Source of the DNA: Candidatus Heimdallarchaeum aukensis
GTDB lineage: Archaea > Asgardarchaeota > Heimdallarchaeia > Heimdallarchaeales > Heimdallarchaeaceae
Direction of reading: 5' to 3'
DNA length: 64,000 nucleotides
Assembly: GCA_021513695.1 (NCBI GenBank)
Contig: CP084166.1
Location: 1,664,001 to 1,728,000, forward strand
Part shown: in pieces, positions 5,572 to 50,370 of the stretch
How positions within the stretch are numbered: position 1 is the first letter of the stretch
Layout of the letters: every line of letters begins with the position of its first letter
Program-made: the position numbers and the translations under genes
Notes under the pieces: model-generated
Databases searched by the model: none
What the model was told of the DNA's origin: nothing
What the model saw: only the letters and a program-made list of their open reading frames with translations

Positions 5572-5693
5572 AGCGCGGTGGGATAGATGGTCAAGTCCGC
5601 TGGGCTCATATTTTAGCCCGCTTTAGAGCCTATAGCCGGGTTCTATAAGGAGAAACCCAGAGATCGGTGGTTCAAATCCACCCCGCGCTACCA
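5572..5693 (+). tRNA. initiator tRNA-Met (anticodon CAU) with a 44-nt intron at the canonical 37/38 position (5611..5654) and an encoded CCA
   Basis: Acceptor stem AGCGCGG/CCGCGCU with an A1:U72 pair, the archaeal initiator hallmark. D arm GGAU/GUCC around the loop AGAUGGUCAA. Anticodon arm CUGGG-CUCAUAA-CCCAG with three G:C pairs next to the loop. T arm GGUGG-UUCAAAU-CCACC, discriminator A73, CCA at 5691..5693. The intron is TTTTAGCCCG...AAGGAGAA. Confidence 0.8.
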
Positions 5694-9751: not shown

Positions 9752-9967
9752 CTTAATTCTGAACTTTATTTGCCATAAAAGTTTAAACCAAGTAATCGTG
9801 TTACATCCAATAATGATGATAACCTCCTCTATTTAGGAAAAAGACTACACTTTTAAATTTTAATATGTGCTAGCGCAAAGAATTAAACGACACTAAAAAA
9901 TATTTTGTTGATTAAAAAATATTTTTGAAAGAGAAAGATTTATGTTTTGTTGCGATTTTTGTTTTCA

Positions 9968-11581
9968 ATGATTAGTGGAAGCAAGTCTATTAGGGTGCCA
10001 ATATATGGAAAAAGAGGAATGGTTGCATCGAGTCAACCTTTAGCTTCAGAGGCAGGAATGAGGATCTTACAACAAGGAGGTAATGCTGCAGATGCAGCTG
10101 TTGCAGTTGCTGCTGCCCTAAATGTTACTGAACCCACCTCTACTGGAATAGGAGGAGACTGTTTTTGTTTGTATTGGGATAATAAGAAAAAAGAAGTTAC
10201 AGGAATTAATGGAAGTGGGAGAGCACCTAGTGAGTTATCTTTAGAGTTTTTACAAGAACAAGGGATAACAGATAGCTTACCACCCTTTAGTGTTCACACA
10301 GTAACAGTTCCTGGTGCTGCTGCAGGATGGGCAGACACTATAGAAAGATATGGAACAATGTCATTAAAAGAGGTTTTAGCTCCTGCTATCGAATTGGCTG
10401 AAGAAGGTTTTCCTGTTTCTCCAATAACTGCTTTTTTTTGGGATAGAGGTGTCACGCAATTAAAGAATGGGCCAAATGCAGAAGAGTTACTAATCAATGG
10501 AAGAGCACCAAGAGAAGGGGAAATAATGAAAAACCCCACATTAGCAAGCACATTTCGTGAATTAGCAGAACACGGAAAAGCGGGTTTTTACGAGGGTAGA
10601 ATAGCTGAATCTATCATTGATCTATTACAATCTCTTGGAGGAGTGATGACTTTAGAGGACCTAAAAAATCATAGAAGTACATTTGACAAGCCTATCTCCG
10701 TAAATTATAGGGGAGTTGATATTTTTGAAATTCCGCCTAATGGACAAGGAATAACAGCTTTAATTGCATTAAATATTCTTGAAGAGTTCGATCTCACAAA
10801 TATTCAACATTTATCTTCAGAATATTTTCATCTTCTTATTGAAATCATGAGAATTTCTTTTGCAGATACAAGGTGGTATGTAGCTGATCCTGATGTTGTT
10901 TCTGTTCCAACTTCTGAACTTCTCTCTAAAGAATATGCAATAGAAAGGAAAAAATTATTTAATCCAAAAAAAGCCACAATAGATGTTAAGAGAGGAACTC
11001 CTTTTTCCAGTTCAGATACAGTATATTTCTGCGTGGTTGATGGAGAAGGAAATGCCTGTAGTTTTATTAATTCGAATTATATGGGATTTGGAACAGGACT
11101 TATTCCAAAAAACTGTGGATTCACTCTGCAAAATAGAGGAGCTAATTTTTCTCTTGATCCAAAGCATCCAAATGCTTTAGCTCCAAACAAAAGACCATAT
11201 CACACAATAATACCAGGAATGGCAATAAAGAACAGAGAATTATACGCCCCCTTTGGTGTTATGGGGGGTTTCATGCAACCTCAAGGTCACGTTCAGATAT
11301 TAGTAAATATGATAGATTATGGCATGAATCCTCAACAAACACTAGATACACCCAGATTTTGCATCAGGGATGGAACAAGCAAGGGAAAAGTAGCTTTAGA
11401 AGAGAGTATAGATGTAACGGTAATGAGTGAATTAGCGAGAATGGGACACGAGGTTGTCCCAGTAACTGGCTGGGCAAGAGCTGTCTTTGGTAGAGGACAA
11501 ATAATTAAGAGAGATCCTGAAACTGGAGTTCTTTGTGGAGGAACAGACCCTAGAGCAGACGGTACAGTTATTGCATGGTAA
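9968..11581 (+). CDS. ggt: gamma-glutamyltranspeptidase (GGT family)
   Basis: TGIGGDCFCLYWD, VYFCVVDGEGNACSFINS(N), a GMxxxGG-like block and GGTDPRADG are GGT family hallmarks, including the catalytic Thr context. The track starts at TTG 9947; ATG is at 9968. Confidence 0.8.
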   Translation: MISGSKSIRVPIYGKRGMVASSQPLASEAGMRILQQGGNAADAAVAVAAALNVTEPTSTGIGGDCFCLYWDNKKKEVTGINGSGRAPSELSLEFLQEQGITDSLPPFSVHTVTVPGAAAGWADTIERYGTMSLKEVLAPAIELAEEGFPVSPITAFFWDRGVTQLKNGPNAEELLINGRAPREGEIMKNPTLASTFRELAEHGKAGFYEGRIAESIIDLLQSLGGVMTLEDLKNHRSTFDKPISVNYRGVDIFEIPPNGQGITALIALNILEEFDLTNIQHLSSEYFHLLIEIMRISFADTRWYVADPDVVSVPTSELLSKEYAIERKKLFNPKKATIDVKRGTPFSSSDTVYFCVVDGEGNACSFINSNYMGFGTGLIPKNCGFTLQNRGANFSLDPKHPNALAPNKRPYHTIIPGMAIKNRELYAPFGVMGGFMQPQGHVQILVNMIDYGMNPQQTLDTPRFCIRDGTSKGKVALEESIDVTVMSELARMGHEVVPVTGWARAVFGRGQIIKRDPETGVLCGGTDPRADGTVIAW

Positions 11582-11599: not shown

Positions 11600-13042
11600 T
11601 TAATTTGAAAAGACTAGAGATTTTACTACCACGGGAACAACCAAACCTCCTGCTTTAGGTTTGTCTATATCTATAAAATCTCCTTCTTCCACATCTATTT
11701 CATCAATAGAAACAATATTCTGTTTAACAGCTGTTTCTCTCACCATCACATTTCCTACAGAATTTGCTATATCTTTTTCAAAAACCAAGATAACTGGTAA
11801 TTCATTCTCTATTGTCTTGGGAATTGCTTTTTCTATCCCTTTTACAAAAGTAGTTAAACCTGCATAAGAACCACCTATTGCGCCCTTGAAGAGCAATGCA
11901 ACAACATCTTGGCCATCTATCTTATCAAACAGTTTATAACTTTTAATTATAGCTTTTGAAACAGTTTCAATACTTAACTGCTTTCCATTTAACTTTGGTT
12001 CGATTACAGGAATATTGTGTAAAGGTAGAATATCATTGTCAGAAACGTGTGTTGTAACACCAGAAACTTTGAGAGTATACTGTCCCGCACCTATTACTGT
12101 TGCTCTGATGAGCTCTTTAGGGGTATAAAGAGACAAGTTATGTTTTTTCACTAACTTTAGAATTTCAATACCCAAGTACTTACCAAGATCATTGTAATCT
12201 TCAGTTGTCCGTTCATAAATATATTCTGCCACGCCTCCAGAAAATGAATATTGATCAATTTCCTCTTCAAATGAAAGGGGATTAGTCATAAGCAAGTTTT
12301 GTGCAAGATTTGATGAATTTTTTTTGAAGAGGAGATCAAACAAACTTTCTGCGAGATATTTAGCTATTTTTTGCTTCGTTTCTTCAGAAATAGAAATTCC
12401 ATAGTCAAACTTTATTCCAATTATTGGCTCAAGATGACGAATGGGTTCTTCTATTCGAATGATTCTATTCTCGGAGTCAAAAGCTAATAATCTTCCTCCC
12501 ACATTTACACATGAAGCATCTACAACTTTACCATTGGAAACAACTGCAATATTAGATGTACCGCCACCAATATCAATATTAATAACATTTTTTTTATTTT
12601 CTTTTGAATACTTAACTGCTCCAGAACCCATAGCAGCAATAACGGATTCAAAATTGGGTCCTGCTGTAGCAGCAACAAATCGACCAGCTTTGTGTGCAAG
12701 AGCTTTTACTAAGTCTTCAGCATTGTGTTTTTTTGCGCTTTCACCAGTGATTATCACAGCTCCTGTGTCAATATCTTCTGGTTTAATATTTGCTTTTTTG
12801 TACTCTTCTTTAAGAAATTTGATGAGTTCAAAGTAGTCAATAGTTTGATTTTCAATATCAATTGGAGTAAGAATTATATTTCCTCTGTATAATATTTTTC
12901 TTTCTGTAACTTCGAATTTTAATCTTCCTTGTGGAGAATATACTTTCTCCAGCTTTAATAAAGAATACACAATGTGGCTTGTGGTAGTTCCTACATCGAT
13001 CCCTAGACTTTTCAAGTATATAGGTTTGTGCTCCTCATCCAT
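11600..13042 (-). CDS. eutA: EutA-like protein (ethanolamine ammonia-lyase reactivase family, ASKHA ATPase fold)
   Basis: Extended similarity to EutA across the whole length. LGIDVGTTTSHIVYS matches GIDIGTTTTQVIFS. AVIITGESAKK, NIDIGGGTSNIAV, CVNVGGRLL and the C-terminus GDFIDIDKPKAGGLVVPVVVKSLVFS match GDYIDIGTPLFGGSVVPVTVKSLAFPS. Confidence 0.7.
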   Translation of the reverse strand: MDEEHKPIYLKSLGIDVGTTTSHIVYSLLKLEKVYSPQGRLKFEVTERKILYRGNIILTPIDIENQTIDYFELIKFLKEEYKKANIKPEDIDTGAVIITGESAKKHNAEDLVKALAHKAGRFVAATAGPNFESVIAAMGSGAVKYSKENKKNVINIDIGGGTSNIAVVSNGKVVDASCVNVGGRLLAFDSENRIIRIEEPIRHLEPIIGIKFDYGISISEETKQKIAKYLAESLFDLLFKKNSSNLAQNLLMTNPLSFEEEIDQYSFSGGVAEYIYERTTEDYNDLGKYLGIEILKLVKKHNLSLYTPKELIRATVIGAGQYTLKVSGVTTHVSDNDILPLHNIPVIEPKLNGKQLSIETVSKAIIKSYKLFDKIDGQDVVALLFKGAIGGSYAGLTTFVKGIEKAIPKTIENELPVILVFEKDIANSVGNVMVRETAVKQNIVSIDEIDVEEGDFIDIDKPKAGGLVVPVVVKSLVFSN

Positions 13043-13184
13043 CCTAGTTCATAAAAAGGGATTCTACCTCTCTTTTAAATCTTTGTTTAAACGATAGATT
13101 ACAAATGGATTTTATTGATTTTCAAAACACGCCCAAAAAAACAATAAACTTTAAAATGTCTAATAAAACACCTAATTTAGATTA

Positions 13185-14174
13185 GTGATGTCGCAATTAA
13201 ATGTTGAAAAAACAGATTCATCTGAAGAAACTAAACTTGGTCCAAGAACAGAAAAAGAAGTTTGGCAAGATTGGGGAAAAAGTATTCTTTCATGGCTAAC
13301 TGATAAAATTCATTCTCCAATGGGTGTTTGGTTTATCAGTATCTGGTTAGTGAGTATCATCACAATGGGAATCACAAATATATTAAGAGGAGAATCATTT
13401 TTCAAGGGACCTAGTTACTGGATAGGAACGTTTCTTACTTATGGTTTGAATGTTGGACAAGATCCTACGTACAGATTCATTGCTAAGCCAGTAATTAATT
13501 GGATTTTCGCTCCAATGGTTGTCATTACTTTAGGGATAACCCTATTTGTTTTACCAGATTGTGGATTCTTTAGAAATGGAGCTTTTCCAAAAGAAGAACT
13601 TGATTTCCAAAAAACATATATGTTTTTCAACACTGAAGTCTGGGGAAGCGATTTAGTTAACCCAAATCATCCAAAATGGACAGCAATGTATCTTTGGATA
13701 GTGTGGATGCCAGTAATTCTAGGAACTGCAATTGCGTCTATATACAATTTTATCGTATTTAAGAAAATCCAAAAAAGAAAAAGAGCTATTCCGAAACCAA
13801 CTAACAGCTTACTATATAGCTTGATAGCATCTTTTATCGTTGGGATTGCAATGGCTCTAATGACAGGTAATATAGAGCTACGCTTTAGTGGAATCTTAAG
13901 ATCAATATTCATTGAAAGAAAGACAAATAGCTTCTTTATTTACGGAACTCAATACAATCTAAGTGGTCAATATCATCCCATTGGTTTAGCATTAACAATG
14001 TGGTTGATTAATTTTATACCCTTTGCTATTGTTTATCTGATGTTTTTGATCACAATGAATATTGATAAAATATGGATAAATAGAGAAAAAATTATTGAAA
14101 ATATAAAGACAAAAATAAAAAGAGAAAAAGTTGTTGATTTATTCCACGAGCAGCAAAAAATAAATCAAAACTAA
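13185..14174 (+). CDS. hypothetical polytopic membrane protein
   Basis: 329 aa with multiple hydrophobic helices and no recognisable catalytic motif. Divergent from the EutA-like gene. Confidence 0.4.
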   Translation: MMSQLNVEKTDSSEETKLGPRTEKEVWQDWGKSILSWLTDKIHSPMGVWFISIWLVSIITMGITNILRGESFFKGPSYWIGTFLTYGLNVGQDPTYRFIAKPVINWIFAPMVVITLGITLFVLPDCGFFRNGAFPKEELDFQKTYMFFNTEVWGSDLVNPNHPKWTAMYLWIVWMPVILGTAIASIYNFIVFKKIQKRKRAIPKPTNSLLYSLIASFIVGIAMALMTGNIELRFSGILRSIFIERKTNSFFIYGTQYNLSGQYHPIGLALTMWLINFIPFAIVYLMFLITMNIDKIWINREKIIENIKTKIKREKVVDLFHEQQKINQN

Positions 14175-14321: not shown

Positions 14322-15248
14322 ATGAACACCAATACTAGTTTAAAAAACAAATTTGATTCAAGTAGTAAAACAAAAGTTGTTTTATTAGCGGAGGATTTAA
14401 TAAAAATTTATAAAACAGGCGAAAGTGAAACACAAGCACTTAGAGGTGTTTCGCTGAAAGTTCATGAAGGAGAAAAAGTTTTTCTTATTGGTCCATCTGG
14501 AAGCGGAAAAACAACGTTAGTAAACATTCTAGCAGGAATTGATAAACCTACTTCTGGCAAAGTGTTTTGGGGAGATTTAAATGAAGATATCACAAGAAGC
14601 TCTCATGAAGAGATTATAAGAAATAGAAGAAATTATGTAGGAGTAATTTTTCAAGATTCAAAGCTTATACCACATTTAACAGTAGAAGAGAACATTAGAT
14701 TAACTGCTCATTATGCTAATTTAGACTTTGAAGAGACAGAGAGAAGATTAGAATTTATCCTAAAATTTATGGGGATATGGGATAAGAGAAATAAAAAACA
14801 GAACAGACTGTCAGGAGGAGAACAAAAAAGAGCAGCAATTGCCTCCACTTTAATTACGAACCCTAGAATAATTATAGGAGACGAACCGACAGGCAATCTA
14901 GATATAGTAACGTCTAGTAAAATTCTGGACTTGTTGGATAAAATTAACGTAGAATTAAATGTTGCTCTACTAATAGTCACCCACTCACAACTCGTCGCAC
15001 AAAGAGCTGATAGAATTATAGAATTTAGCGATGGAGTAATTCTAGCGCAGCATGGTAAGGATATACGTTTAAGAGAGCTAAAGCAAACCAGAGAATTAGA
15101 AATAGATAGACAAAATAGAATCCACATTCCACAATCAATTCTTGAAGAACTAAATAATCCAAAACATTTTACAATAAATTTAGAAAACAAAAAAATAGTC
15201 TTAAAACCCATATATCAACAAGAAGATGAAAATGAAAATAATAGCTAA
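14322..15248 (+). CDS. ABC transporter ATP-binding protein (MacB/LolD/FtsE-like) with C-terminal AbrB/SpoVT-like domain
   Basis: Walker A GPSGSGKTT, signature LSGGEQKRAAIA, Walker B IIGDEPTGNLD, H-loop THS. The C-terminal about 45 aa, RIHIPQSILEELNNPKHFTINLENKKIVLKPI, fits the swapped-hairpin AbrB/SpoVT pattern (r.tIPkeiree...gd.v.....ivLkp). Confidence 0.75.
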   Translation: MNTNTSLKNKFDSSSKTKVVLLAEDLIKIYKTGESETQALRGVSLKVHEGEKVFLIGPSGSGKTTLVNILAGIDKPTSGKVFWGDLNEDITRSSHEEIIRNRRNYVGVIFQDSKLIPHLTVEENIRLTAHYANLDFEETERRLEFILKFMGIWDKRNKKQNRLSGGEQKRAAIASTLITNPRIIIGDEPTGNLDIVTSSKILDLLDKINVELNVALLIVTHSQLVAQRADRIIEFSDGVILAQHGKDIRLRELKQTRELEIDRQNRIHIPQSILEELNNPKHFTINLENKKIVLKPIYQQEDENENNS

Positions 15249-15309: not shown

Positions 15310-15759
15310 ATGAAAGAGGACAATAAAGTATTAAACAATAAAAAGGAAATAAAAAATCAAGCGAAAATTGAGAAAACGCAAATAAAAGCTAAATGGGATG
15401 TAATTTTACTTACAGGCTTTTTTTCATCGTTGTTATTTTTTATATTAGATGTAATAATAGTGCTCATTTTCATACTTGGTTTAAAGAGAGATGCAATATT
15501 AACTCTTGTAGCGTTTGAATATGTTTTATTAGGAGAAGTAGCAATTGTTGTAATATGGGGGGCTTGTATAGGAAATATAAAACAATCAGTTGTAATTCAA
15601 AAGGTAAAAGAAAAAATTACAAAGTCTGAAACAATAAACAAATTTACGATTAAAGAAGCTACTTTCAATGCCATTTCATACTATTTTGCTGGGCTATTTC
15701 TATTCATTTATCTGATTGTTCTTCATAAAATATTGCAAATTTTGGTTAAAATTGCATAA
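15310..15759 (+). CDS. small membrane protein (about 4 TM)
   Basis: Hydrophobic 149-aa ORF following the ABC ATPase. Too small to be a canonical FtsX/MacB permease. Confidence 0.35.
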   Translation: MKEDNKVLNNKKEIKNQAKIEKTQIKAKWDVILLTGFFSSLLFFILDVIIVLIFILGLKRDAILTLVAFEYVLLGEVAIVVIWGACIGNIKQSVVIQKVKEKITKSETINKFTIKEATFNAISYYFAGLFLFIYLIVLHKILQILVKIA

Positions 15760-15923: not shown

Positions 15924-17690
15924 ATGAATAAAAAAGCATTTTTAGGGATTGCACTGATATTTGTTGTTAGTGCATCAATGATCCCAGCATCCGCTGCAGA
16001 AGGAGACATTATACCTGCTTTCTATATTAACTTACTATCACCTAACACCAACCCTGCCAGAAATCAATGGGCTGCATTAATGGAAAACCAATTACCAAAA
16101 ATAGGAATTGGTATAGCTTTCCATGAGTCCACTGGTTGGGGTAACATCATGCCTCGTACATGGGCTTATCCAGTTGGTGAAGAAGGTAAGTTTGACTACA
16201 TCCCAACATATGAAGATGGTGGTTATGACATCCTTTTTGTAGGTTGGAGCTGGGGATTAGATTGGGATCCAACAGGTCTTTATGATTCAGCCAGTATTGT
16301 TCCTGCTGGAGACAATATGTACCAATACAGTAATCCTACTTTTGATGAAAAACTAGTAGAATATACTACTGAACTTGATGATACTGCTCGTATCGCTAAG
16401 GCTAAAGAATTACAAGCTATTCTCTATGATGATTTACCAGCAATTACACTCATCTATCCTAGAGAAGTATTTGGATTCTCTAAAGCTTTGAGTGGAATTG
16501 ATACCCTATTATTAGGTACAAGTGCTCATCGTCCAGAAAACTGGAGAACAACAGAAGCTGATTCTACCATTACTTATGCACTTCCTGCTGAATTAACAGA
16601 ATATAACATCTTTGTCCAAGAATCATATTATGATGCTCAATGGATGAGCTGTGTCTACTATGGTCTCTTCGGACGAAGTCAAGATGAACACTTAATGGTA
16701 CCAGTTTTAGCTGACAGTTACACTGTTTCAGACGATAAATTGGTATTCACTGTTGATATTAGTCCTGATGCCTACTTCAGCAATGGAGATCCAGTAACTG
16801 CATATGATGTTGACTACACATATGAATTACACATGACCCCTGCAGTTGCATCCAGTTCTTATGGTTATCTAACAACCTTCTTTGAGGACAATGATTCAAT
16901 TGTAGCTTTGGATGATGATACCGTTCAATTTACTTTGAAACAACCATATGCTTTCGCATTAGGTCTTCTAAGTTATGGTATAATCAACAAGAACTTAGTT
17001 CAAGCATACATTGATGAAAACGGTTATGACATGGGAGCTCTAGATACTGCTTTAGTTACTGGAGCAGGTCCATACATGCTAGACATTAATGACTATGACA
17101 CAGCTACAAGCACTGTAACTCTACATCCCAATCCTCATTGGGCTTTAACAGATGATGATCTTGTTGAAAGTTTAATCTTCACATTCATATCTGGTAAAGA
17201 TACAGCCATTGCTGCTCTCGCTGATGGAACAGTAGATATTGTTGACTCACAATACGCTCCTGTTGAATCAGATTATGAGGGAATTGATGCAAACGTTGTA
17301 GTTGCTAAAACTCCAGCTACACAAGAAATGGCTATTAACTTGAAGCACCCAATCATTGGTACTGGAGAACTCACTCCTGCTGGAACAGCTGATGCAGCAA
17401 AAAGCATCAGAAAAGCAATTAGCCATGCTGTTCCTCGTGACACCATCGTAACAGAAATTCTACAAGGTCTTGGAGCACCTGGTGTAAACCCAATGCCTGA
17501 TGCTTCAGTAGGTTTTGACACCAGTTTAGAACCATACACCTATGATCTTGAATTAGCTAAATCTTTGATTGAAGCTGCTGGATACACATTAGAAACTGAA
17601 ACAGCTGTTAAAACTGGAATCGCAGGATTAGTTTTCATTTCCTTCTTAGGTGTTGCTTCTTTAGTAGCATTAAGAAGATTTAGAAAATAA
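15924..17690 (+). CDS. extracellular solute-binding protein, family 5-like (Opp/Dpp type), with signal peptide and C-terminal TM anchor
   Basis: Signal peptide MNKKAFLGIALIFVVSASMIPASA. Large D/T/A/G-rich periplasmic-type domain of the size and composition of family-5 SBPs. C-terminal hydrophobic anchor GIAGLVFISFLGVASLVAL followed by RRFRK, as in archaeal SBPs. GGTGA ribosome-binding site at 15911. Confidence 0.5.
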   Translation: MNKKAFLGIALIFVVSASMIPASAAEGDIIPAFYINLLSPNTNPARNQWAALMENQLPKIGIGIAFHESTGWGNIMPRTWAYPVGEEGKFDYIPTYEDGGYDILFVGWSWGLDWDPTGLYDSASIVPAGDNMYQYSNPTFDEKLVEYTTELDDTARIAKAKELQAILYDDLPAITLIYPREVFGFSKALSGIDTLLLGTSAHRPENWRTTEADSTITYALPAELTEYNIFVQESYYDAQWMSCVYYGLFGRSQDEHLMVPVLADSYTVSDDKLVFTVDISPDAYFSNGDPVTAYDVDYTYELHMTPAVASSSYGYLTTFFEDNDSIVALDDDTVQFTLKQPYAFALGLLSYGIINKNLVQAYIDENGYDMGALDTALVTGAGPYMLDINDYDTATSTVTLHPNPHWALTDDDLVESLIFTFISGKDTAIAALADGTVDIVDSQYAPVESDYEGIDANVVVAKTPATQEMAINLKHPIIGTGELTPAGTADAAKSIRKAISHAVPRDTIVTEILQGLGAPGVNPMPDASVGFDTSLEPYTYDLELAKSLIEAAGYTLETETAVKTGIAGLVFISFLGVASLVALRRFRK

Positions 17691-18831: not shown

Positions 18832-19593
18832 GGTAGTGTCTAGTTTTCTTCCGACAAAATATTTGTGGGGACTCTAATAGTAAGATATGAAAACACAAAA
18901 ACTATCTACTCTTTTTAAGAGATGCAGAGTCCCCAAAAAAATAATAATAAAAGCGATTTATGAATATATTGGTTCAAAGAATGGTTTGAGGACAGTAGCA
19001 TGGAAGAATGGTTTAACGCATCAAACATTATGGTATTGGGTAAAGAAGTTCAGGCTCTTTAGGGAAAGTTTACATAGAGTTGTAGCAGAGAGAGGGGGAA
19101 TGCCAGAGATTATAGTAGTAGATGAAACAGAGATTAAGACCTCTCAAGGCTCAATGTATATGTGGTTCGCGTTAGATCCTTACAACAAGACTTTACTGGG
19201 TTTTAGTATTACTAAAGGACGGAGTAATCTTGAATGTTTACTAACTTTCCGTTATTGGCTCAAATGTTGGGGTTTTAAGCCCCGTATTGTCGTTACAGAT
19301 GCAGGAGTATGGTATCCTGTCTTACTTCGTCTCGGTATCAAAATCTCCGTTATCAAAGGTGGTTTACGCTCCTATATTGAACGTTTTAATGCTACTCTTA
19401 AGAGTTATCGTTGGTTTCATTCTATTCTCCACTGCACTTGTCCTATCCGTGCCGTCTATGGCTCTACTCATCTTTCTGGTTTTCTTACTCTCTTTATGCT
19501 CCATTATAATTTCGTTCGTCCTCATCAGAGCTTGGGACATCCTCCCCTTAGTTCCTTTTTACCTAGGAGGTGGTATAAAAACTAGACACTACC
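18832..19593 (+). mobile_element. compact insertion sequence (762 bp) with perfect 16-bp terminal inverted repeats and a 9-bp target-site duplication
   Basis: Left inverted repeat GGTAGTGTCTAGTTTT (18832..18847). Right inverted repeat AAAACTAGACACTACC (19578..19593) is the exact reverse complement. Both are flanked by the direct repeat GCTGCTACA (18823..18831 and 19594..19602). It encodes a single DDE transposase. Confidence 0.75.
18887..19585 (+). CDS. DDE transposase (rve/integrase-core type) with N-terminal HTH
   Basis: N-terminal HTH (GLTHQTLWYWVKKF). Catalytic D in VVDETEIK, D in VVTDAGVWY, E in ERFNATLK, plus the YNFVRPHQSLG motif typical of rve-core transposases (IS481/IS3-like). Confidence 0.7.
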   Translation: MKTQKLSTLFKRCRVPKKIIIKAIYEYIGSKNGLRTVAWKNGLTHQTLWYWVKKFRLFRESLHRVVAERGGMPEIIVVDETEIKTSQGSMYMWFALDPYNKTLLGFSITKGRSNLECLLTFRYWLKCWGFKPRIVVTDAGVWYPVLLRLGIKISVIKGGLRSYIERFNATLKSYRWFHSILHCTCPIRAVYGSTHLSGFLTLFMLHYNFVRPHQSLGHPPLSSFLPRRWYKN

Positions 19594-22947: not shown

Positions 22948-25938
22948 ATGGAAAATATCGAAGCTGTGTGTATCAAAATTCTCTCTCAAAAGGGAGGAGA
23001 AAATCCCCTCACTTCATTATTAGTTGAAATAAACAAAATTCAATATGTTCTTAATCTTTGGACTCCTTGGAATGAAATTGGTGATTACATTCAACCTTAT
23101 ACCAAGATACGTGCTTTTAACGTTGACAAGATAAAAAATAGTGACTCGATCTACTATTCTGCCGGAAAAAAGGCCATAGTTGTCGTAGATCCAGATATTC
23201 TAATTAATGCGTCTACAATTGGAAATATTTCCTATTGCCCAAGAAGTTATTACATCAGTGAAAAAATGGGAGATACTCTTTCTCCTTTATCTGCAATTAA
23301 AGGAACAATTGTTCATGTAGCTTTGAGTACAGCTATCGCTTCTGGAAACTCTCCCACGGAAGTATTATCTGATGTTATTGATTACTATTCAATCCAATTC
23401 GAGCAACTAGGTTACTCTCGAGAAAATATTGAAACAGAAGTCTACAAAATGGTTGAAGCACTAGATCAATTTATTAAAACTCTTCCCACAGAAACAATTC
23501 CCGAGTCACTCTTTTTCTCACCTTACTTAGGAATCAGAGGAAGAATTGATGTACTTGCAGAGCGTATTTACGAACTTAAAACAGCTAAACTTGGTACAGA
23601 TGATGATGCACGATTTTCAGATATGATGCAAGTAACTCTTTATTCTTTTGGTTTAACAGATATGAAGGAAAGTATAGCACAAACAGATGGAACTGTTTTA
23701 TATGTAGGTTCAGAAACTCTTCAACCAAAAGAAGTAAACATTAGTTGGGGAATCTTAAGATATGCTATTCAAATGCGTAATATTGCCTATAGAATCTCTT
23801 TTTTAGATTATATTCCTCCTATTCTTGGCGAAAACCAATCCAGAAAATGCAGTAAATGTTCAGTTCAAGTTATGTGTAGCCTTTTTTGCGCAGGGTTAAA
23901 TCAATTTAGGAATTGTGAAATATGTAATCATTCTCATTTTTGCAGTAAAACAGTTTTATCTGAAAAAGAGCAAGAATATTTCAATAAATATAGTTACTTG
24001 TTGTCTCAGGAAAGGCTAGAAACAAACCGCAATTTAGCTGATTTGTGGAATCTTTCTCTAGAAGAGAGAGTAGAAAAAGGAAAAACTATAGTTAACTTAG
24101 TATTAAAAAATGAAATTTTAGAAAATGGAATAAGGACATTAGTTTTTTCTTGTAACAATCAGTCAGAGATAAGAGAAGGAGATGTTATCATCTTAAGTGA
24201 CGGGGAAGTAATTTCCAATCCAATTAGTACAGGAACTGTGACTAACATTACATCAACATCTATAGAAATAGAAACAAAAGCTCATCCTGAAAAAGTTTCT
24301 GTAATTGATTTGTATTCTATTGATGTGGGATTTAATCGTCAACAAAGAGGATTATTCAACTTTATTTTTAAATCTAATAATTTTAAAGATATAATCTTGG
24401 GGCATAAACCTCCTGTTATAAAAAAAGTCAAAGGAAATTTTGTACCTAACAATTCTTCTCAAAATGAAGCTATCCAAAAGATTCTTGGTACTGAAAATTA
24501 CTTATTGATTCAAGGCCCTGCAGGAACAGGAAAAACACATGTAATTGCCAAATCTGCAATTTTACTCGCTGATAAAAAAGAGAAGGTGCTTTTAACAGCT
24601 TATACAAATCGAGCTGTTGACAACATGTGTAAATATCTATTAGAAAATGGTTATCAAAATTTTGTTAGGTTAGGCTCTACGCATGCCACACAGAGAAAAA
24701 TAAGAAAATACACTTTGTTTTCAATATTGAAGAAAAATAAAAATAAAAAAGTACTCGATCTTCTTGACGAATATCAAATAATTGTTGCCACAACATCCAC
24801 TATTTCTTCACCAGTTTATTCTAATCTTGGAATACAAACAGTAATCGTTGATGAAGCAAGCCAGATGACTGAAACAACTCTGCTTTCTGCTTTAATAGAA
24901 GGTAAGAAATTTATTCTTGTTGGAGACCACAAGCAATTGCCCCCTGTTATTCAAAGTGTGCTGTGTAAAAACGAGGGGTTTGATATTTCATTATTTGAGA
25001 AATTGGCCAAATCTAATCCCCAATTTGTTCATTTACTAACAATCCAATTTAGAATGAATGAGAAAATAATGGAATTTTCAAACAAAAAGTTTTATGAGAA
25101 CAAACTAGAATGTTTTGATAACCTAATTGCACTCCAAAACTTATATGACTTAGGAAATTTCGCAGGAGATTTTCAGCAATTTGAAAATAAGGCTATCTAT
25201 GACCCAAAAATGCCTTTAGTATACGTTCAAGTAAATGGAAAATTCAATCCTGAAAAAAAACTGAATGCTATGGAAGCTGAAATTGTTGCTACAATAGCTA
25301 AAAACTTTTTGAGATTAGGAATAAGCACTGAACAAATTGGAGTTATTGCACCTTATCGAGGGCAAGTAGGTGAAATAAGAAGATATATACCAGGTGTTTC
25401 GGTCGATACTGTAGATAGGTTTCAAGGTTCTGACCGAGAGATTATAATTCTCTCATTAACAGAAACAAATATTCACGGTTTTAAGGGATTTTCAGATGAA
25501 AGAAGACTCAATGTTGCTATTACGCGGGCTAAAAAGAAACTGGTAGTAGTTGGAAACCCAAATCTTACTGAGGGAGAGTTAGGAGAGTACATTAGTTATC
25601 TAAGAGATAATGTAGAAAATGTTCAAGTTAAAGAGATAGAAGAAAGAGAGGAATTGATAGAAAAACAAATAAGAACGGTCATAGTTGCTGATTCCATATC
25701 AAAAGTTGCTTCATTTTTCAAAAAAGTTAAGGCAAAAGGAAAAGAATTATACAAATCAAAAGAAGAAATAAACAAATGTCCAATTTGTTTCCAACAAGTT
25801 TATGAGAATGCTATTCAATGTCCAATTTGTGAAAAACTTTATCATTACACTCACTTAATCCAATGGATTAAAGAAAAAGGAAGATGCCCTTACTGCAAAA
25901 CATCTTTATCTATATATTCTGTCTATGCAGAAGAGTAA
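22948..25938 (+). CDS. Cas4/Dna2-like PD-(D/E)xK nuclease (Fe-S cluster) fused to an SF1B Upf1/Dna2-like helicase, with a C-terminal RING/PHD-like zinc finger
   Basis: N-terminal nuclease carries RecB motifs: GRIDVL (motif II), YELKTAK (E-x-K) and QVTLY (QxxxY). A Cas4/Dna2-type 4-Cys set is present: YCPRSY plus CSKCSVQVMCSLFC. Helicase motifs include Walker A GPAGTGKTHV, motif II VIVDEASQ, VGDHKQLPP, DRFQGSDREIIILS and motif VI NVAITRAKKKLVVVG. The C-terminus reads CPIC-x10-CPIC-x4-H-x2-H-x12-CPYC. Confidence 0.7.
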   Translation: MENIEAVCIKILSQKGGENPLTSLLVEINKIQYVLNLWTPWNEIGDYIQPYTKIRAFNVDKIKNSDSIYYSAGKKAIVVVDPDILINASTIGNISYCPRSYYISEKMGDTLSPLSAIKGTIVHVALSTAIASGNSPTEVLSDVIDYYSIQFEQLGYSRENIETEVYKMVEALDQFIKTLPTETIPESLFFSPYLGIRGRIDVLAERIYELKTAKLGTDDDARFSDMMQVTLYSFGLTDMKESIAQTDGTVLYVGSETLQPKEVNISWGILRYAIQMRNIAYRISFLDYIPPILGENQSRKCSKCSVQVMCSLFCAGLNQFRNCEICNHSHFCSKTVLSEKEQEYFNKYSYLLSQERLETNRNLADLWNLSLEERVEKGKTIVNLVLKNEILENGIRTLVFSCNNQSEIREGDVIILSDGEVISNPISTGTVTNITSTSIEIETKAHPEKVSVIDLYSIDVGFNRQQRGLFNFIFKSNNFKDIILGHKPPVIKKVKGNFVPNNSSQNEAIQKILGTENYLLIQGPAGTGKTHVIAKSAILLADKKEKVLLTAYTNRAVDNMCKYLLENGYQNFVRLGSTHATQRKIRKYTLFSILKKNKNKKVLDLLDEYQIIVATTSTISSPVYSNLGIQTVIVDEASQMTETTLLSALIEGKKFILVGDHKQLPPVIQSVLCKNEGFDISLFEKLAKSNPQFVHLLTIQFRMNEKIMEFSNKKFYENKLECFDNLIALQNLYDLGNFAGDFQQFENKAIYDPKMPLVYVQVNGKFNPEKKLNAMEAEIVATIAKNFLRLGISTEQIGVIAPYRGQVGEIRRYIPGVSVDTVDRFQGSDREIIILSLTETNIHGFKGFSDERRLNVAITRAKKKLVVVGNPNLTEGELGEYISYLRDNVENVQVKEIEEREELIEKQIRTVIVADSISKVASFFKKVKAKGKELYKSKEEINKCPICFQQVYENAIQCPICEKLYHYTHLIQWIKEKGRCPYCKTSLSIYSVYAEE

Positions 25939-39407: not shown

Positions 39408-40073
39408 TTATGAAGAAACTTTTTGTGATTCTAAAAGATATAATCTTTTCTTTAATGAATGATACTTTTTAGCAAATTCTAGGCTAGAGACTTCATAATC
39501 CTCAAACTGTTGTTCAAGTGCAAATAATTCATTCTCAACTTTTAATATTTCATCCTCAAGTAGTTTTGATTTCTCTTGAGCAATAACATTTTCAGAAACA
39601 CTGCTTCTCTCTTTTCGCTCGATCTCTGCTAATTCCCTCTTTTTCTGTTCTAATATTCGAACTAATTGAGATTTTTGATTATTTAACATCGCAATTTCTG
39701 ATGTTGGATCTTCCCATGTAGTTTCAGCATATGAAACCATTTTTGCTCTTACTCTTTGAAACAGACGCTTTACTTCTGCAATTACTTGAAAAATATGATA
39801 AGTTGGCCTCCACCGAGCTAACATTCTCATAGAAAGGATTCCATCTTCGACATTTGGATGTTCCATGGGAGTATTGACATAGATAGTTGGAGGAACATTT
39901 GGAAAATCATTAGGAATAACAATTTCTATTTCAGCATTTTTGGTGCCATTATAGGTTTGAACTGGAACAAAACCTTTCCATATTCTTAAATTGCCATCTT
40001 TAGGTTCAAAACCATAAGCTCTTTCATAAATAAATTGGGCCTCTCGACTTAGAATTTCATCGGAAATGGTCAT
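39408..40073 (-). CDS. UEV (inactive ubiquitin-E2 variant) domain + coiled-coil protein, TSG101/Vps23 (ESCRT-I)-like
   Basis: N-terminal about 120 aa, IEIVIPNDFPNVPPTIYVNTPMEHPNVEDGILSMRMLARWRP, has the E2/UEV beta-hairpin-PP-HPN-x3-G layout. Ser/Met stand where the catalytic Cys would be, so it is non-catalytic. The C-terminal 100 aa are continuous heptad coiled coil. Confidence 0.55.
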   Translation of the reverse strand: MTISDEILSREAQFIYERAYGFEPKDGNLRIWKGFVPVQTYNGTKNAEIEIVIPNDFPNVPPTIYVNTPMEHPNVEDGILSMRMLARWRPTYHIFQVIAEVKRLFQRVRAKMVSYAETTWEDPTSEIAMLNNQKSQLVRILEQKKRELAEIERKERSSVSENVIAQEKSKLLEDEILKVENELFALEQQFEDYEVSSLEFAKKYHSLKKRLYLLESQKVSS

Positions 40074-47764: not shown

Positions 47765-47977
47765 TTAACGTATAAAAATACTTAATATTGTCGTAATTAT
47801 CAACACTGTTACCCCAGCAACCACTAACCAAAACACTATATCAAACAGATAAATCATTTTTGGAACTTTTACTTTTTCCCATTTCCTTACTACAGTTTTG
47901 TTTAAATTCTTTTCTGAGCTCATTTTTCCACCTTTCTCCTTATTATCTATACCTTTCCTATTCCACTTTTCTCCCAT
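47765..47977 (-). CDS. small single-pass membrane protein
   Basis: K-rich N-terminus then one TM helix (IYLFDIVFWLVVAGVTVLIITTILSIF). Overlaps the 5' end of the next ORF unless it starts at the internal Met. Confidence 0.25.
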   Translation of the reverse strand: MGEKWNRKGIDNKEKGGKMSSEKNLNKTVVRKWEKVKVPKMIYLFDIVFWLVVAGVTVLIITTILSIFIR

Positions 47978-48465
47978 TTCTGAAATTGTTCAAGTAAGTT
48001 TTCTATTTCCCCGGATACACCTTTTTTGTCTACGAAAACAGTTTTTCCTTTAATTCGTATATTGTCTGTTGGTAAATCTAGCAAAAACTTCTGCAATGCT
48101 AGTTCATCAGTAAATCCTAACAGTTCAGCCATTGTCTCTATTTCTATTTCTTCATATTTCATTAATATTTGTTCAAATTTTGCTTTTCTTTCTTCCTCTG
48201 TTAATTCCTTAATTATTTTTTCTCCTTTCTTCTTTATTTTGACAAATCTGTCTTCTTTTAGCTCGCCCTCTATTTTTCTTTTTTCTATTAGTGATTGAAT
48301 TATAGCTCTTACTTCATCTTCTTCTATACCTGTGATTTCAGTTATTTTATTTACTTCTCTAACCATTTCAAGTTGAGTTAAAATTGTTTGTTCTTTTATT
48401 TGTCTCTGTATTTTTGGAATTTTCTTTTTTATATAATATCTTGAAAATGGACCTATGATTTTCAT
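47947..48465 (-). CDS. small protein with two predicted winged-helix modules
   Basis: Segments TQLEMVREVNKITEITGIEEDEVRAIIQSLIEKRKIEG and ETMAELLGFTDELALQKFLLDLPTDNIRIKGKTVFV each look like wHTH units. The linker is charged and helical. Confidence 0.35.
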   Translation of the reverse strand: MKIIGPFSRYYIKKKIPKIQRQIKEQTILTQLEMVREVNKITEITGIEEDEVRAIIQSLIEKRKIEGELKEDRFVKIKKKGEKIIKELTEEERKAKFEQILMKYEEIEIETMAELLGFTDELALQKFLLDLPTDNIRIKGKTVFVDKKGVSGEIENLLEQFQKWEKSGIGKV

Positions 48466-48664: not shown

Positions 48665-48789
48665 ATTAATTAGTTCTTTTCGCTTTTTGCAGCAGTTTAC
48701 ATTTCTTTTTTCGTAATTGTAACTTGTTAATTGAACATTCTCTTTTAAAAAAGCAATATTTAATTAATTATTCAGTATTTTTTTCTTTA

Positions 48790-50370
48790 ATGAGTAACTC
48801 TTCTACTTTTCAAATTGTTATCCCTCAATCAGGACATCATGAACCAATTACTGTAATTAAGGAAATAAATAGATTAATTTTCACTGGAGATGCCTCAGGT
48901 AAAATTTGTATTTGGAATACATCTTTTGATTCTGAATTAGGTTTTATTAAAGCTCATTCCTCTTCTATTACTGATATTGAATGGTTCCCTTTTTCACCTT
49001 CTATTATCACATCATCACAGGGTTTAGATATTCGCTTATGGTCATGGGATAACTTTTCATTACTGCAATCGCAACAAGTTCATGGGTCCGTTGTTATTAA
49101 CATTGACTTTCTTGGTGACTATATTATCACAGGAGGACGTGACAGATTACTAAAGAAATGGTCTTTTTCTGAGGGAAAATTTCATCTTGTAAAACAGGTT
49201 AAAATTCCTTATTTAGAAGAGTTTTTTGTTTTTGACGATAAAATTCTTATTTCTTGTTCTGACGGATCAATTTCTATTTACGATTCAGATTTTAACCCCT
49301 TATCTTATTTAACCTTGAAAAGAAATAAACTTGTATCTGCAATTAGGAAATCAGGAAAATACCTTTCTACATACAAGAAAGACCCTTATACTGTTATTGG
49401 ACATTTGGAGGGTGTTCGAGGTCTTTCTGTTACTTGTTTCACTTTTGATGAAAAATTTCTTTATTTAGGACACTTCTATGGCATCATTACAGTATGGAAA
49501 AAGAAGGATTTCAAGCTTTCACATATTTTTGTTTCTCACGACAAAAATATTACGTCTATTCATATATTTAAAGGAAAAGTTGTAACAATTGCTCTTGATT
49601 CTAAGGTTGCAGTTTTTGATATAGCCAAAGAAAAACATCATTCCTATGAATTGCCTTATCGTCCTCTATGTTTAATTCAATTAAAAAATGAAAATTTTGT
49701 TATTGGGTTTGATAATGGTTTAATTGGAGTTTATGATAGTAATTTTAATGAAATCAAAAAAAGAGTTCCTGTTCAAAATATTAATTGTTGTTCAATTTCT
49801 CCTGAATTTATTTTAATAGGTACTAATAATGGGTATGTTAAACGATACACTATTCCAAATCTTGAAGAAATAGCACACTTCCATATTAATTCATCAATTC
49901 TAGGAATTTTCTACTATGATAGTATGATAGCTATTATTGATAGTGATAGTAATCTTAGAATATATGAAGCAAATTTAGCTTTTTCAGAGATTAAGCAATT
50001 ATTAATTCCTTTGAGAAAAGAAGAACTAACACTACAAGGATATAATAGATACATTGTTTTGTCTCCCAATTTGATCTTTGATTTTGAAAAGATGGAAATT
50101 ATGAAGGGAGAAGTCTCCTCTTCAACGAAAAAGAAATATTCAGAGTCAATAGTATACTCTTTTTCTTTTGAAACAGGAAATATTATTCTTAACATTGATG
50201 AAAATAAATTAAACATGTTTCTTGAAAAAGGAGACTACTCTGTCTATCCTGAAGGCATTTTGAGAAGTTTGAAAAAACTGATTCACAATGTTTCCTCACC
50301 TTTAAGACAGATTGGTGAATCTACTTGGATTAACATTGACATTCTTGAACAAGCAAGAAAACTCAGATGA
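48790..50370 (+). CDS. WD40-repeat (beta-propeller) protein
   Basis: Multiple WD-like repeats (GKICIWNT, DIRLWSWDN, LLKKWSF, ITVWKKKD) are spaced about 40-45 aa apart. The track starts at TTG 48724; ATG is at 48790. Confidence 0.55.
   Translation: MSNSSTFQIVIPQSGHHEPITVIKEINRLIFTGDASGKICIWNTSFDSELGFIKAHSSSITDIEWFPFSPSIITSSQGLDIRLWSWDNFSLLQSQQVHGSVVINIDFLGDYIITGGRDRLLKKWSFSEGKFHLVKQVKIPYLEEFFVFDDKILISCSDGSISIYDSDFNPLSYLTLKRNKLVSAIRKSGKYLSTYKKDPYTVIGHLEGVRGLSVTCFTFDEKFLYLGHFYGIITVWKKKDFKLSHIFVSHDKNITSIHIFKGKVVTIALDSKVAVFDIAKEKHHSYELPYRPLCLIQLKNENFVIGFDNGLIGVYDSNFNEIKKRVPVQNINCCSISPEFILIGTNNGYVKRYTIPNLEEIAHFHINSSILGIFYYDSMIAIIDSDSNLRIYEANLAFSEIKQLLIPLRKEELTLQGYNRYIVLSPNLIFDFEKMEIMKGEVSSSTKKKYSESIVYSFSFETGNIILNIDENKLNMFLEKGDYSVYPEGILRSLKKLIHNVSSPLRQIGESTWINIDILEQARKLR

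Follow-up and report, generated by a model that had tools for sequence, protein, structure and literature searches.

A stand-alone EutA-family ATPase of Heimdallarchaeaceae that may serve a client other than ethanolamine ammonia-lyase

EutA is the bacterial repair ATPase for the vitamin B12 enzyme ethanolamine ammonia-lyase. It swaps Co(II)Cbl for AdoCbl on this enzyme, which is itself able to function without any EutA (PMC9426561). Nothing in the literature searched tied EutA to a function in Asgard archaea or to aldehyde:ferredoxin oxidoreductases (AORs), and ethanolamine ammonia-lyase was nowhere mentioned alongside the Asgard archaea, whether under that name or as Loki, Thor or Heimdall archaea; the genome paper of Candidatus Heimdallarchaeum endolithica and its 25 supplements make no mention of ethanolamine, eutB, EutA or cobalamin genes. 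Here, a EutA-like gene is described in a 64-kb stretch of the Candidatus Heimdallarchaeum aukensis genome (the window). An earlier note on this DNA had called the gene an orphan EutA homolog, similar to EutA from end to end, and had suggested a different radical or B12 enzyme as its client.

A full-length EutA-family protein with intact ATPase motifs

The EutA-like coding sequence occupies positions 11600-13042 of the window on the minus strand (480 amino acids, ATG start, stop codon at 11600-11602). In a search with the PF06277 (EutA) profile, residues 10-478 matched nearly the whole profile (positions 3-474 of 475) and scored 475.3 bits, the cut-off being 27 (E = 2.9e-142). With E. coli EutA as query, tblastn showed 34% identity across residues 6-467 (E = 1e-69). 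Judged from the sequence, this match is far beyond chance, in agreement with the end-to-end similarity reported in the earlier note, and the window protein is almost certainly a EutA-family ATPase. The NCBIfam equivalogs NF007991-NF007994 were also considered as a functional test and were dropped. The best score of the window protein was 413 bits (NF007992) against a cut-off of 598, and Firmicute, Fusobacterium and E. coli EutA exceed the equivalog cut-offs (627-1095 bits); however, these cut-offs are not discriminating because true, eutBC-linked haloarchaeal EutA proteins also fall below them (359 and 382 bits).

The nucleotide-binding motifs are intact, including both of the ASKHA phosphate loops that had been proposed. 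In the phosphate-1 loop SLGIDVGTTTSH (residues 12-23; 12974-13009, minus strand), S12, G14, D16, G18 and T21 are invariant across 24 sequences, E. coli EutA among them. It is followed by a conserved segment, TGAVIITGESAKKHNA (residues 93-108; 12719-12766, minus strand), where neither the orphan nor the eutBC-linked sequences vary at G94, T99, G100, E101, N107 and A108. In the phosphate-2 loop NIDIGGGTSNIA (residues 155-166; 12545-12580, minus strand), D157, G159, G160, G161 and N164 are invariant, and it is this stretch that gives rise to weak matches of the protein to MreB, FtsA and EutJ. The adenosine-binding motif SFSGGVAEYIY (residues 266-276; 12215-12247, minus strand), of which the core FSGGVAEY is likewise present, has G269, G270 and E273 invariant. 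Residues D16, G18, T21, D157, G159-161, G269, G270 and E273 are the same in E. coli EutA and 70 relatives.

An AF2 model of the protein (pLDDT 85.7) showed a two-lobed ASKHA fold with an extra C-terminal domain; the homology survived both the profile search and the structure prediction. This alpha/beta domain lies outside the ASKHA core (residues 336-480; 11603-12037, minus strand) and carries the GDxIDxx...VVPVxVKxL block of the family. The block had been given earlier as GDYIDIG...VVPV.VKSL, which is approximately right but not literal: it runs as EEGDFIDID...VVPVVVKSLVF (11609-11689, minus strand) and reads EEGDFIDIDKPKAGGLVVPVVVKSLVF. Structure comparison of the C-terminal domain gave no informative structural relative. 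Identity to eutBC-linked EutA is 31% in this domain compared with 38% in the ASKHA core, and the conserved residues specific to orphan sequences cluster here. Across eutBC-linked and orphan sequences, 56 positions are invariant, all nucleotide-binding motifs among them, and only three positions carry conserved residues that differ from one group to the other; with so slight a divergence, the sequence is compatible with reactivation of a cobalamin enzyme. The gene is under strong purifying selection (dN/dS of 0.049 relative to the 92% identical ortholog of Ca. Heimdallarchaeum endolithica, closed genome CP084167.1).

Genomic surroundings and clade separation

The EutA-like gene is convergent with a gamma-glutamyltranspeptidase (GGT) gene (9947-11581, plus strand; PF01019, 520 bits; TIGR00066, 417 bits), with 18 bp between the two stop codons. 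A divergent intergenic region of 142 bp (13043-13184) separates its start from the gene of a lineage-specific membrane protein (13185-14174, plus strand) with no Pfam or NCBIfam match; both neighbours are as the earlier note had described them. An A/T-rich TTTAAA element read ~30 nt upstream of the EutA-like ATG is a putative promoter of the gene. Beyond the membrane protein, Pfam scans indicate that the plus strand continues with genes for an ABC ATPase (14322-15248), then a small membrane protein (15310-15759), and lastly a SBP_bac_5 solute-binding protein (15924-17690). For the lineage-specific membrane protein, 47 homologs were found, and those with a named source all come from Heimdall or other Asgard archaea.

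This arrangement was compared with that around relatives of the gene. GGT adjoins the EutA-like gene in all 17 Heimdallarchaeaceae loci and in no other lineage, and the membrane protein/ABC cluster adjoins it in 15 of the 17. In one rearranged Heimdallarchaeaceae locus (L020) the membrane protein/transporter cluster is lost and the EutA-like gene kept, with GGT still adjacent and now co-directional; in H. endolithica the spacer between the EutA-like and membrane protein genes is interrupted by an IS element. In Asgard archaea the EutA-like gene is never accompanied by a co-directional partner that is conserved, and no partner gene is conserved across the Asgard lineages, the neighbours in Heimdall, Thor and Loki archaea being mutually non-homologous. 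Clustering of 1195 neighbour proteins showed lineage-level synteny only, and the adjacency of GGT and the membrane protein is family-level synteny only.

As had been claimed, the 64 kb yielded no other eut gene. A Pfam scan of 51 ORFs of at least 120 amino acids, which included every non-nested ORF of the window, detected no EutB, EutC, BMC, EutN, B12-binding or AOR domain, and in a six-frame tblastn of the window with all 16 E. coli Eut proteins EutA was the sole match. The orphan status also holds beyond the window: eutB and eutC were found within ~10 kb in none of 89 related loci, and the count was likewise zero for both the set of 53 Asgard loci and that of 37 Desulfobacterota loci with close relatives. 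As a positive control, the same query was applied to nine reference loci, seven of which are eutBC-linked. In all seven it located eutBC directly beside eutA, in haloarchaea (two loci) as well as in Firmicutes and Fusobacterium. The genomic linkage to eutB/eutC that is expected of a functional EutA was absent both in the 64 kb and in the ~10 kb around relatives.

In an NJ tree of 99 sequences (200 bootstraps), the eutBC-linked references, a small set of eight sequences, were split from all orphan sequences with 97.5% bootstrap support, and the window protein was not placed among them. The orphan clade comprises Asgard archaea and Desulfobacterota, and the Asgard members include two paralog groups, group 1, which contains the window protein, and group 2, whose members have an N-terminal extension. 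It is likely that the window protein does not serve ethanolamine ammonia-lyase, and in the reading favoured below it belongs to a EutA branch that is not part of ethanolamine catabolism. Because this branch was never found beside ethanolamine genes, the database name 'ethanolamine ammonia-lyase reactivating factor EutA' is probably wrong for the window gene.

Desulfobacterota relatives and candidate clients

The Desulfobacterota members of the clade are 43-48% identical to the window protein, and in the NJ tree they are nearest to Asgard group 2, not to group 1. Their genes lie in an operon with the order c5, AOR, polyferredoxin, EutA-like gene and IclR and with gaps of 3-34 nt, in which the AOR is a tungsten-type enzyme of 646 amino acids and the polyferredoxin has 167 amino acids. 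Genes for ThiS/ThiF-like, radical-SAM-like, DUF5981 and TmcC-like proteins lie beside it, and the conserved operon protein c12 (460-535 amino acids) gave weak radical-SAM-like NCBIfam matches and no PDB relative, even in a profile search. An AOR gene is within 10 kb in 28 of the 37 Desulfobacterota loci, and two Asgard loci have a polyferredoxin-AOR pair ~9 kb from the EutA-like gene. A search for homologs of the Desulfobacterales AOR, meant to show whether Asgard AORs are its nearest outgroup, did not reach beyond close relatives: each of the best 120 matches had an identity of 88% or more, and the named ones were all from Desulfobacterales/Deltaproteobacteria. AOR with polyferredoxin is the only consistent operon partner in the clade, and is so in bacteria only; the tungsten/molybdenum-pterin AOR with polyferredoxin is accordingly the only client class with contextual support. 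That the client of the window protein itself is of the AOR type is a tentative suggestion, and an unlikely one.

We favour, while regarding the case as evenly balanced, a reading in which the window gene encodes a functional stand-alone EutA-family ASKHA ATPase that acts as a remodelling or cofactor-exchange chaperone for a client other than ethanolamine ammonia-lyase. By analogy with EutA, the two phosphate loops and the adenosine motif would make up the cleft in which ATP is bound and hydrolysed, and the ATP cycle would open a client enzyme with a tightly held cofactor, such that a damaged or missing cofactor could be released and replaced. The C-terminal domain would probably recognise the client, which, because the EutA-like gene is monocistronic, would be encoded elsewhere in the genome.

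A conventional EutA, serving an ethanolamine ammonia-lyase encoded by eutBC at another place in the genome, beyond the window, is quite unlikely. The NCBI label of close relatives, the full-length collinear homology to E. coli EutA and an NF007992 score above those of the haloarchaeal eutBC-linked proteins favour it; however, the adjacency of eutBC in the linked reference loci and its absence within ~10 kb from all 53 Asgard and 37 Desulfobacterota loci, the bootstrap-supported split, the lack of any link between ethanolamine ammonia-lyase and Asgard archaea in the literature searched, and the capacity of the enzyme to operate without EutA (PMC9426561) all argue against it. Reactivation of another AdoCbl enzyme encoded elsewhere (for instance methylmalonyl-CoA mutase, a class II ribonucleotide reductase, or a mutase acting on lysine, ornithine or glutamate), with damaged cobalamin exchanged for AdoCbl, has its nearest biochemical precedent in EutA acting on ethanolamine ammonia-lyase (PMC9426561), and the 56 shared invariant positions with few class-specific differences, the presence of B12 in Asgard enrichment media and a MetH-like B12-binding-domain protein 4.4 kb upstream in L020 are consistent with it. 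Nevertheless, this single MetH-like protein is the exception: searches seeded with E. coli ScpA, ArgK and MetH, which are blind to aminomutases, glutamate mutase and class II ribonucleotide reductase, found no MCM, MeaB or B12-binding-domain gene in the window or elsewhere among the 90 loci, and no B12 Pfam domain occurs in any Pfam-labelled neighbourhood. Known AdoCbl mutases rely on other chaperones (MeaB-type G-proteins and MutL-type ATPases). An AdoCbl client is in our judgement unlikely, and of the interpretation in the earlier note the orphan status stands, whereas the B12 or radical-enzyme client found no support in gene context.

The neighbours themselves might supply the function. 5-oxoprolinase is another ASKHA ATPase, and the window protein could act with GGT, the SBP_bac_5/ABC transporter and the membrane protein of Heimdallarchaeaceae to import and degrade gamma-glutamyl compounds or peptides, for instance through a 5-oxoprolinase-like ATP-dependent step. 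Such a role would agree with the conserved adjacency of GGT, which persists in the rearranged L020, and with a GGACT-family gene 7 kb away in locus L007, but it is very improbable: GGT is convergent and the membrane protein divergent, so there is no operon, and no similarity to the hydantoinase/oxoprolinase family was found with Pfam or NCBIfam. The whole region is syntenic across the family, a Dna2 and a THUMP gene included, and the adjacency may therefore be inherited gene order; these neighbours are absent from beside the gene in Thor, Loki, Hod and Hermod archaea and in bacteria, and within the family the loss of the transporter cluster from L020 and the IS element in the H. endolithica spacer also weigh against a functional tie. 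Re-use of the EutA scaffold in this clade for something other than a chaperone, be it a kinase or phosphatase of small molecules or an actin-like ATPase that self-assembles, is improbable as well, since the EutA score exceeds by far the 31 bits or less obtained for kinase, phosphatase and filament families, the EutA-specific C-terminal domain and motifs are fully kept, and the structural ranking within the ASKHA fold is generic (12-20% identity).

If the window gene does encode a stand-alone chaperone for a client other than ethanolamine ammonia-lyase, the name EutA would mislead in dozens of Asgard genomes, those of the closest archaeal relatives of eukaryotes, by introducing false ethanolamine or B12 metabolism into reconstructions. 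The finding also defines a conserved family of actin-fold ATPases in Asgard archaea that is under strong constraint. The bacterial operons provide a testable handle on whether EutA-type 'reactivases' service non-cobalamin cofactors. Tungsten AORs are oxygen-labile and of biotechnological interest, and we know of no dedicated repair or insertion ATPase for them. A broader scheme, which we offer as speculation and consider unlikely as a whole, is that the 'EutA' proteins of Asgard archaea and Desulfobacterota are a new class of ATP-dependent repair or maturation factors for tungsten/molybdenum-pterin AOR-type oxidoreductases, which would be the first non-cobalamin clients of the EutA fold, and that their genes passed between Asgard archaea and sulfate-reducing bacteria and, in the archaea, expanded into two or more paralog groups, of which one has a novel zinc-ribbon-like N-terminal extension.

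Comparison with known systems

Two other systems were rejected as identities of the window protein. HgdC/BcrAD-type electron activators ('archerases', PF01869) require a cysteine-held bridging [4Fe-4S] cluster, whereas the window protein has a single cysteine (C178), which is alanine in 13 of 71 relatives, and with this lone, non-conserved residue it cannot hold such a cluster. The DdrAB/GdrAB reactivases (PDB 2D0O) gave no match at the sequence level, and DdrA ranked below Ppx, FtsA, PilM and MreB; the window protein also differs from them in lacking a separate DdrB-like subunit, and its C-terminal domain does not convincingly resemble DdrB or a B12 domain in fold.

The E. coli/Salmonella EutA (PF06277) is collinear with the window protein without large indels, agrees with it fully in the nucleotide-binding motifs, carries the same block near the C-terminus, and shares its two-part build of an ASKHA core and a C-terminal domain of ~145 amino acids. 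The window gene differs in being monocistronic, in having no eut or microcompartment gene near it and in belonging to a separate clade. Compared with the EutA-like genes of Desulfobacterota, it has none of the AOR, polyferredoxin, ThiS/ThiF-like and other genes that lie beside the bacterial gene, whereas the proteins themselves belong to the same orphan clade, have the same length and motifs, and are alike in never being encoded beside eutBC.

The window gene encodes an EutA-family ASKHA ATPase

The coding sequence at 11600..13042 on the minus strand (ATG start, 480 aa) matched the Pfam EutA profile PF06277 along its full length (residues 10-478 against profile positions 3-474 of 475; E 2.9e-142, 475 bits), and residues 6-467 of EutA from the annotated E. 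coli K-12 eut operon aligned with it at 34% identity (E 1e-69). Alignment of the window protein with 22 relatives and E. coli EutA contained more than 60 invariant columns, including the phosphate 1 motif SLGIDVGTTTSH, the phosphate 2 motif NIDIGGGTSNIA, the adenosine motif FSGGVAEY, RATVIGAG, and a C-terminal GDFIDID...VVPVVVKSLVF block. The full-length profile match, the E. coli alignment and the invariant motifs show that the gene encodes an EutA-family ASKHA ATPase, validating the end-to-end EutA similarity reported in an earlier note, which had proposed the PF06277 search as a check; the C-terminal block quoted there is present, with small differences in spelling. Weak additional matches to MreB, FtsA, BcrAD, Ppx and EutJ covered only the phosphate-2 loop, a stretch common to all actin-fold ATPases.

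AlphaFold2 modelling from 71 sequences gave a confident structure (pLDDT 85.7, pTM 0.78), and ranking of this model within the ASKHA fold placed Ppx/GppA highest (up to 18.8), followed by FtsA (16.3), PilM (16.1), MreB (15.3), EutJ (14.9), an HgdC-type activator (14.7), DdrA (13.1) and RACo (12.6); no solved structure of any EutA was found at sequence level. The only cysteine of the protein is not conserved, which excludes an Fe-S "archerase" mechanism.

The gene was shown to be real, intact and selectively constrained, with dN 0.04, dS 0.8 and dN/dS 0.049 against the ortholog in the closed Ca. Heimdallarchaeum endolithica genome (CP084167.1; 92% identity, collinear locus), similar to the 0.061 of the adjacent gamma-glutamyltranspeptidase (GGT) gene, and a mean column identity of 56% for the family across Asgard lineages. 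A protein from a Heimdallarchaeaceae MAG is 99% identical to the window protein.

The surrounding window (G+C ~32%) carries archaeal/Asgard housekeeping genes encoding exosome subunits, SBDS, the RFC large subunit, ABCE1, eIF2-gamma and ribosomal proteins L15e, S15, S3Ae and S6e. As the earlier note had described, the immediate neighbours are a GGT gene (convergent, 18 bp between stop codons) and a membrane-protein gene (divergent, 142 bp spacer) whose product matched nothing in Pfam or NCBIfam; all named sources of its 47 homologs are Heimdall or Asgard archaea. Downstream of the latter lie genes for an ABC ATPase, a small membrane protein and an SBP_bac_5 binding protein; the ABC ATPase (14322-15248, plus strand) is extended at its C-terminus by ~60 aa that weakly match MraZ/AbrB-like sequences (E 0.0079). 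Further afield are a 119-nt tRNA gene (5572-5690, plus strand; Rfam 52 bits, missed by ARAGORN) that most likely contains an intron, tRNA introns being common in archaea; an rve_3 integrase-like ORF (18887-19585, plus strand) ~6 kb from the EutA-like gene; and a Dna2-like nuclease-helicase (22948-25938, plus strand) with PD-(D/E)XK and SF1 helicase domains and a C-terminal RING-finger match (zf-RING_2, E 3.4e-5), which stays beside the EutA-like region in Heimdallarchaeaceae. Eukaryote-like genes encode an E2/UEV-type ubiquitin-conjugating enzyme homolog (39408-40073, minus strand), a small protein with a PCI-domain match (47947-48465, minus strand) and a 548-aa WD40 propeller protein (48724-50370, plus strand).

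EutA-like genes outside eut loci

Pfam scans of 51 window ORFs with a length of 120 aa or more, including all non-nested ones, detected no domain of EutB, EutC, microcompartment shell, B12-binding or aldehyde:ferredoxin oxidoreductase (AOR) type. When the 16 E. coli Eut proteins were compared with all six frames by tblastn, a search that reached short shell genes too, EutA alone was matched, in agreement with the earlier statement that the 64 kb hold no other eut genes. A word-index search returned 7801 proteins at E <=1e-10; Heimdall, Thor, Loki and Hod archaea accounted for nearly all of the best 120. Exhaustive searching among representatives clustered at 50% identity returned 703 at E <=1e-30, ~20 of them at least 41% identical to the window protein. 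Scanning species-representative genomes yielded 80 loci, comprising 10 of Heimdallarchaeaceae type (65-68% identity), 33 from other Asgard archaea (labelled Thor, Promethearchaeota/Loki, Hod, Hermod, Bathyarchaeia or "uncultured archaeon") and, unexpectedly, 37 from Desulfobacterota (44-49%). With the window and further loci added, the set comprised 17 Heimdallarchaeaceae, 36 other Asgard and 37 Desulfobacterota loci.

In tblastn with E. coli queries, EutA was matched in all 90 loci (the window and 89 others) and no other Eut protein in any. This absence is meaningful because identical queries recovered eutB (54-63% identity) and eutC directly adjoining eutA in seven of nine EutA-carrying replicons from a plasmid collection, used as a positive control (Acetoanaerobium, C. 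difficile, Brevibacillus, Listeria, Fusobacterium, and the haloarchaea Natronorubrum and Haladaptatus). The EutA-like gene is thus outside any eut locus, and no examined member of its clade is linked to eutBC. The remaining two control replicons, from Sinorhizobium and Phyllobacterium, carry further orphans, with two EutA-matching places each (L093 and L096, respectively); the Phyllobacterium gene (L096 5675-8446) lies directly downstream of a gene for a 412-aa cupin protein and also adjoins class II aldolases and a NikR/HoxN nickel system.

None of the four NCBIfam EutA equivalog cut-offs was reached by the window protein (best 413 bits against 598), a Desulfobacterota protein (387 bits), a protein of the second Asgard paralog group (group 2; 377 bits) or alphaproteobacterial orphans (315-317 bits), whereas Firmicute, Fusobacterium and E. 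coli EutA scored above; as a functional criterion the cut-off is non-diagnostic, since eutBC-linked haloarchaeal EutA (359 and 382 bits) also fall below. Orphans and eutBC-linked proteins have 56 invariant positions in common and three that are conserved differently; 12 positions are conserved only in orphans, seven of them in the C-terminal domain, where the window protein is 31% identical to eutBC-linked EutA against 38% in the core. At sequence level, this would weakly fit a conserved ATPase engine joined to a diverged client-recognition domain.

Phylogeny and gene context in Asgard archaea and Desulfobacterota

A neighbour-joining (not maximum likelihood) tree of 99 distinct sequences (475 columns, 200 bootstraps), with few canonical references, separated the eight eutBC-linked references from all orphans (97.5%), grouped Asgard and Desulfobacterota sequences without the alphaproteobacterial orphans (79%), and recovered Desulfobacterota as monophyletic (100%) and nested with group 2 as its sister (100%), with 0% for monophyly of all Asgard sequences. 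This grouping pattern implies that the gene was transferred between Asgard archaea and Desulfobacterota. Identity to the window protein, which belongs to group 1, was 66-74% in Heimdallarchaeaceae, 43-48% in Desulfobacterota, 41-46% in group 2, 36% in alphaproteobacterial orphans and 34-40% in eutBC-linked EutA. Group 2 proteins (606-771 aa; L072 6234-11400, L073 57-3931, L078 7551-11400, L086, L032, L050, L058, L066, L076, L081, L083, L089) carry a conserved, helical N-terminal extension of 135-300 aa with no Pfam or NCBIfam match, to which long forms add a zinc-ribbon-like CxxC...(H/C)(H/C), e.g. CTVC...ELPKHC; Thorarchaeota have long (~680 aa) and short (~610 aa) forms in tandem.

Clustering of 1195 neighbour proteins showed that the order SBP5 < small TM < ABC < TM < / EutA-like > / < GGT is kept in 16 of 17 Heimdallarchaeaceae loci, together with wider synteny; in L020, the transporter cluster is lost and the EutA-like gene and GGT are kept. 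The transporter cluster appears restricted to Heimdallarchaeaceae. In H. endolithica (L103 8925-9796, CP084167.1), an IS element (HTH_32 and rve integrase), different from the integrase-like ORF of the window, interrupts the spacer between the EutA-like and membrane-protein genes. A Logan contig encoding an identical EutA-like protein (L002 2608-4218) has GGT broken into three ORFs (102, 105 and 356 aa), which can be attributed either to a pseudogene or to an assembly or frameshift error. In Thor, Hermod and related lineages, the flanking genes encode PALP, a Pyridox_ox_2 protein, an ACT-domain protein, nitroreductase, a 374-421-aa protein and MscS, all divergent from or convergent to the EutA-like gene. 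As adjacent genes are not homologous across Asgard lineages, the Asgard EutA-like gene is a stand-alone cistron, and its local context is little informative on function.

Desulfobacterota carry the gene in a conserved co-directional cluster of two arrangements (loci within L022-L090, and L102 5726-13745). In 11 loci, the genes directly upstream encode a 95-aa protein, a 646-aa AOR (AFOR_N and AFOR_C) and a 167-aa polyferredoxin; in 11 others, they are ThiS-like, ferredoxin and DUF5981 genes, and the AOR module is nearby. The surrounding genes encode ThiF, another ThiS, IclR, a membrane anchor of TmcC/HmcE type and a conserved radical-SAM-like protein. In 28 of the 37 loci, an AOR is encoded within 10 kb of the EutA-like gene. 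An independent AOR-first look-up of precomputed Pfam labels returned ThiS < ThiF < c12 > c5 > AOR > Fdx > EutA (PF06277) > IclR, in which gaps measured 19, 34 and 3 nt. These data show that the bacterial clade members are operonic with tungsten-type AOR, polyferredoxin and pterin-sulfuration-like genes.

In the Desulfobacterales operon, the AOR is at least 88% identical across more than 120 database clusters; the c5 protein is 87-95 aa, and the DUF5981/ferredoxin/ThiS module and TmcC-like anchor are often present. The c12 protein (460-535 aa; L039 3087-4511 plus 12 homologs in alignment A4) contains an invariant C-x31-C-x2-C and many invariant His/Trp, with no Pfam match, weak NCBIfam radical-SAM-like matches and no PDB relative even by profile.

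Candidate clients and relation to known systems

EutA is an ATP-driven remodelling or cofactor-exchange chaperone for ethanolamine ammonia-lyase (PMC9426561). By analogy, the window protein may act as such a chaperone, on a client that would be encoded away from the EutA-like locus. An AOR-type enzyme is ranked first because it is the only candidate with contextual support; this support is indirect, because the sister of the bacterial clade is the other Asgard paralog group, group 2. Among Asgard loci, a polyferredoxin-AOR pair occurs in only two, ~9 kb from the EutA-like gene.

Another AdoCbl enzyme ranks second. Searching neighbour proteins and six-frame loci with E. coli ScpA (MCM), ArgK (MeaB) and the MetH B12 domain gave one match in 90 loci, and Pfam-labelled neighbourhoods contained no B12 domain; this cobalamin test is partial, as the seeds are blind to aminomutases, glutamate mutase and class II RNR. 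The match, in the rearranged Heimdallarchaeaceae locus L020 (1299-2372, minus strand), is to a MetH-like B12-binding domain (E 5e-9) in a 357-aa protein encoded 4.4 kb upstream of the EutA-like gene. Ethanolamine ammonia-lyase itself, with eutBC distant in the genome, ranks third. Two further readings, a non-chaperone role and a function connected with GGT and the transporter, have little support. Annotation of Asgard gene products as "EutA" should not count as evidence of ethanolamine or B12 metabolism.

In the literature searched, Asgard EutA homologs were not discussed beyond the listing of EutA as an actin-superfamily member (PMC5597319), and no EutA-AOR link was found. The fold and family of the window protein are already known; its genomic and phylogenetic setting is new, and its client is probably new as well.
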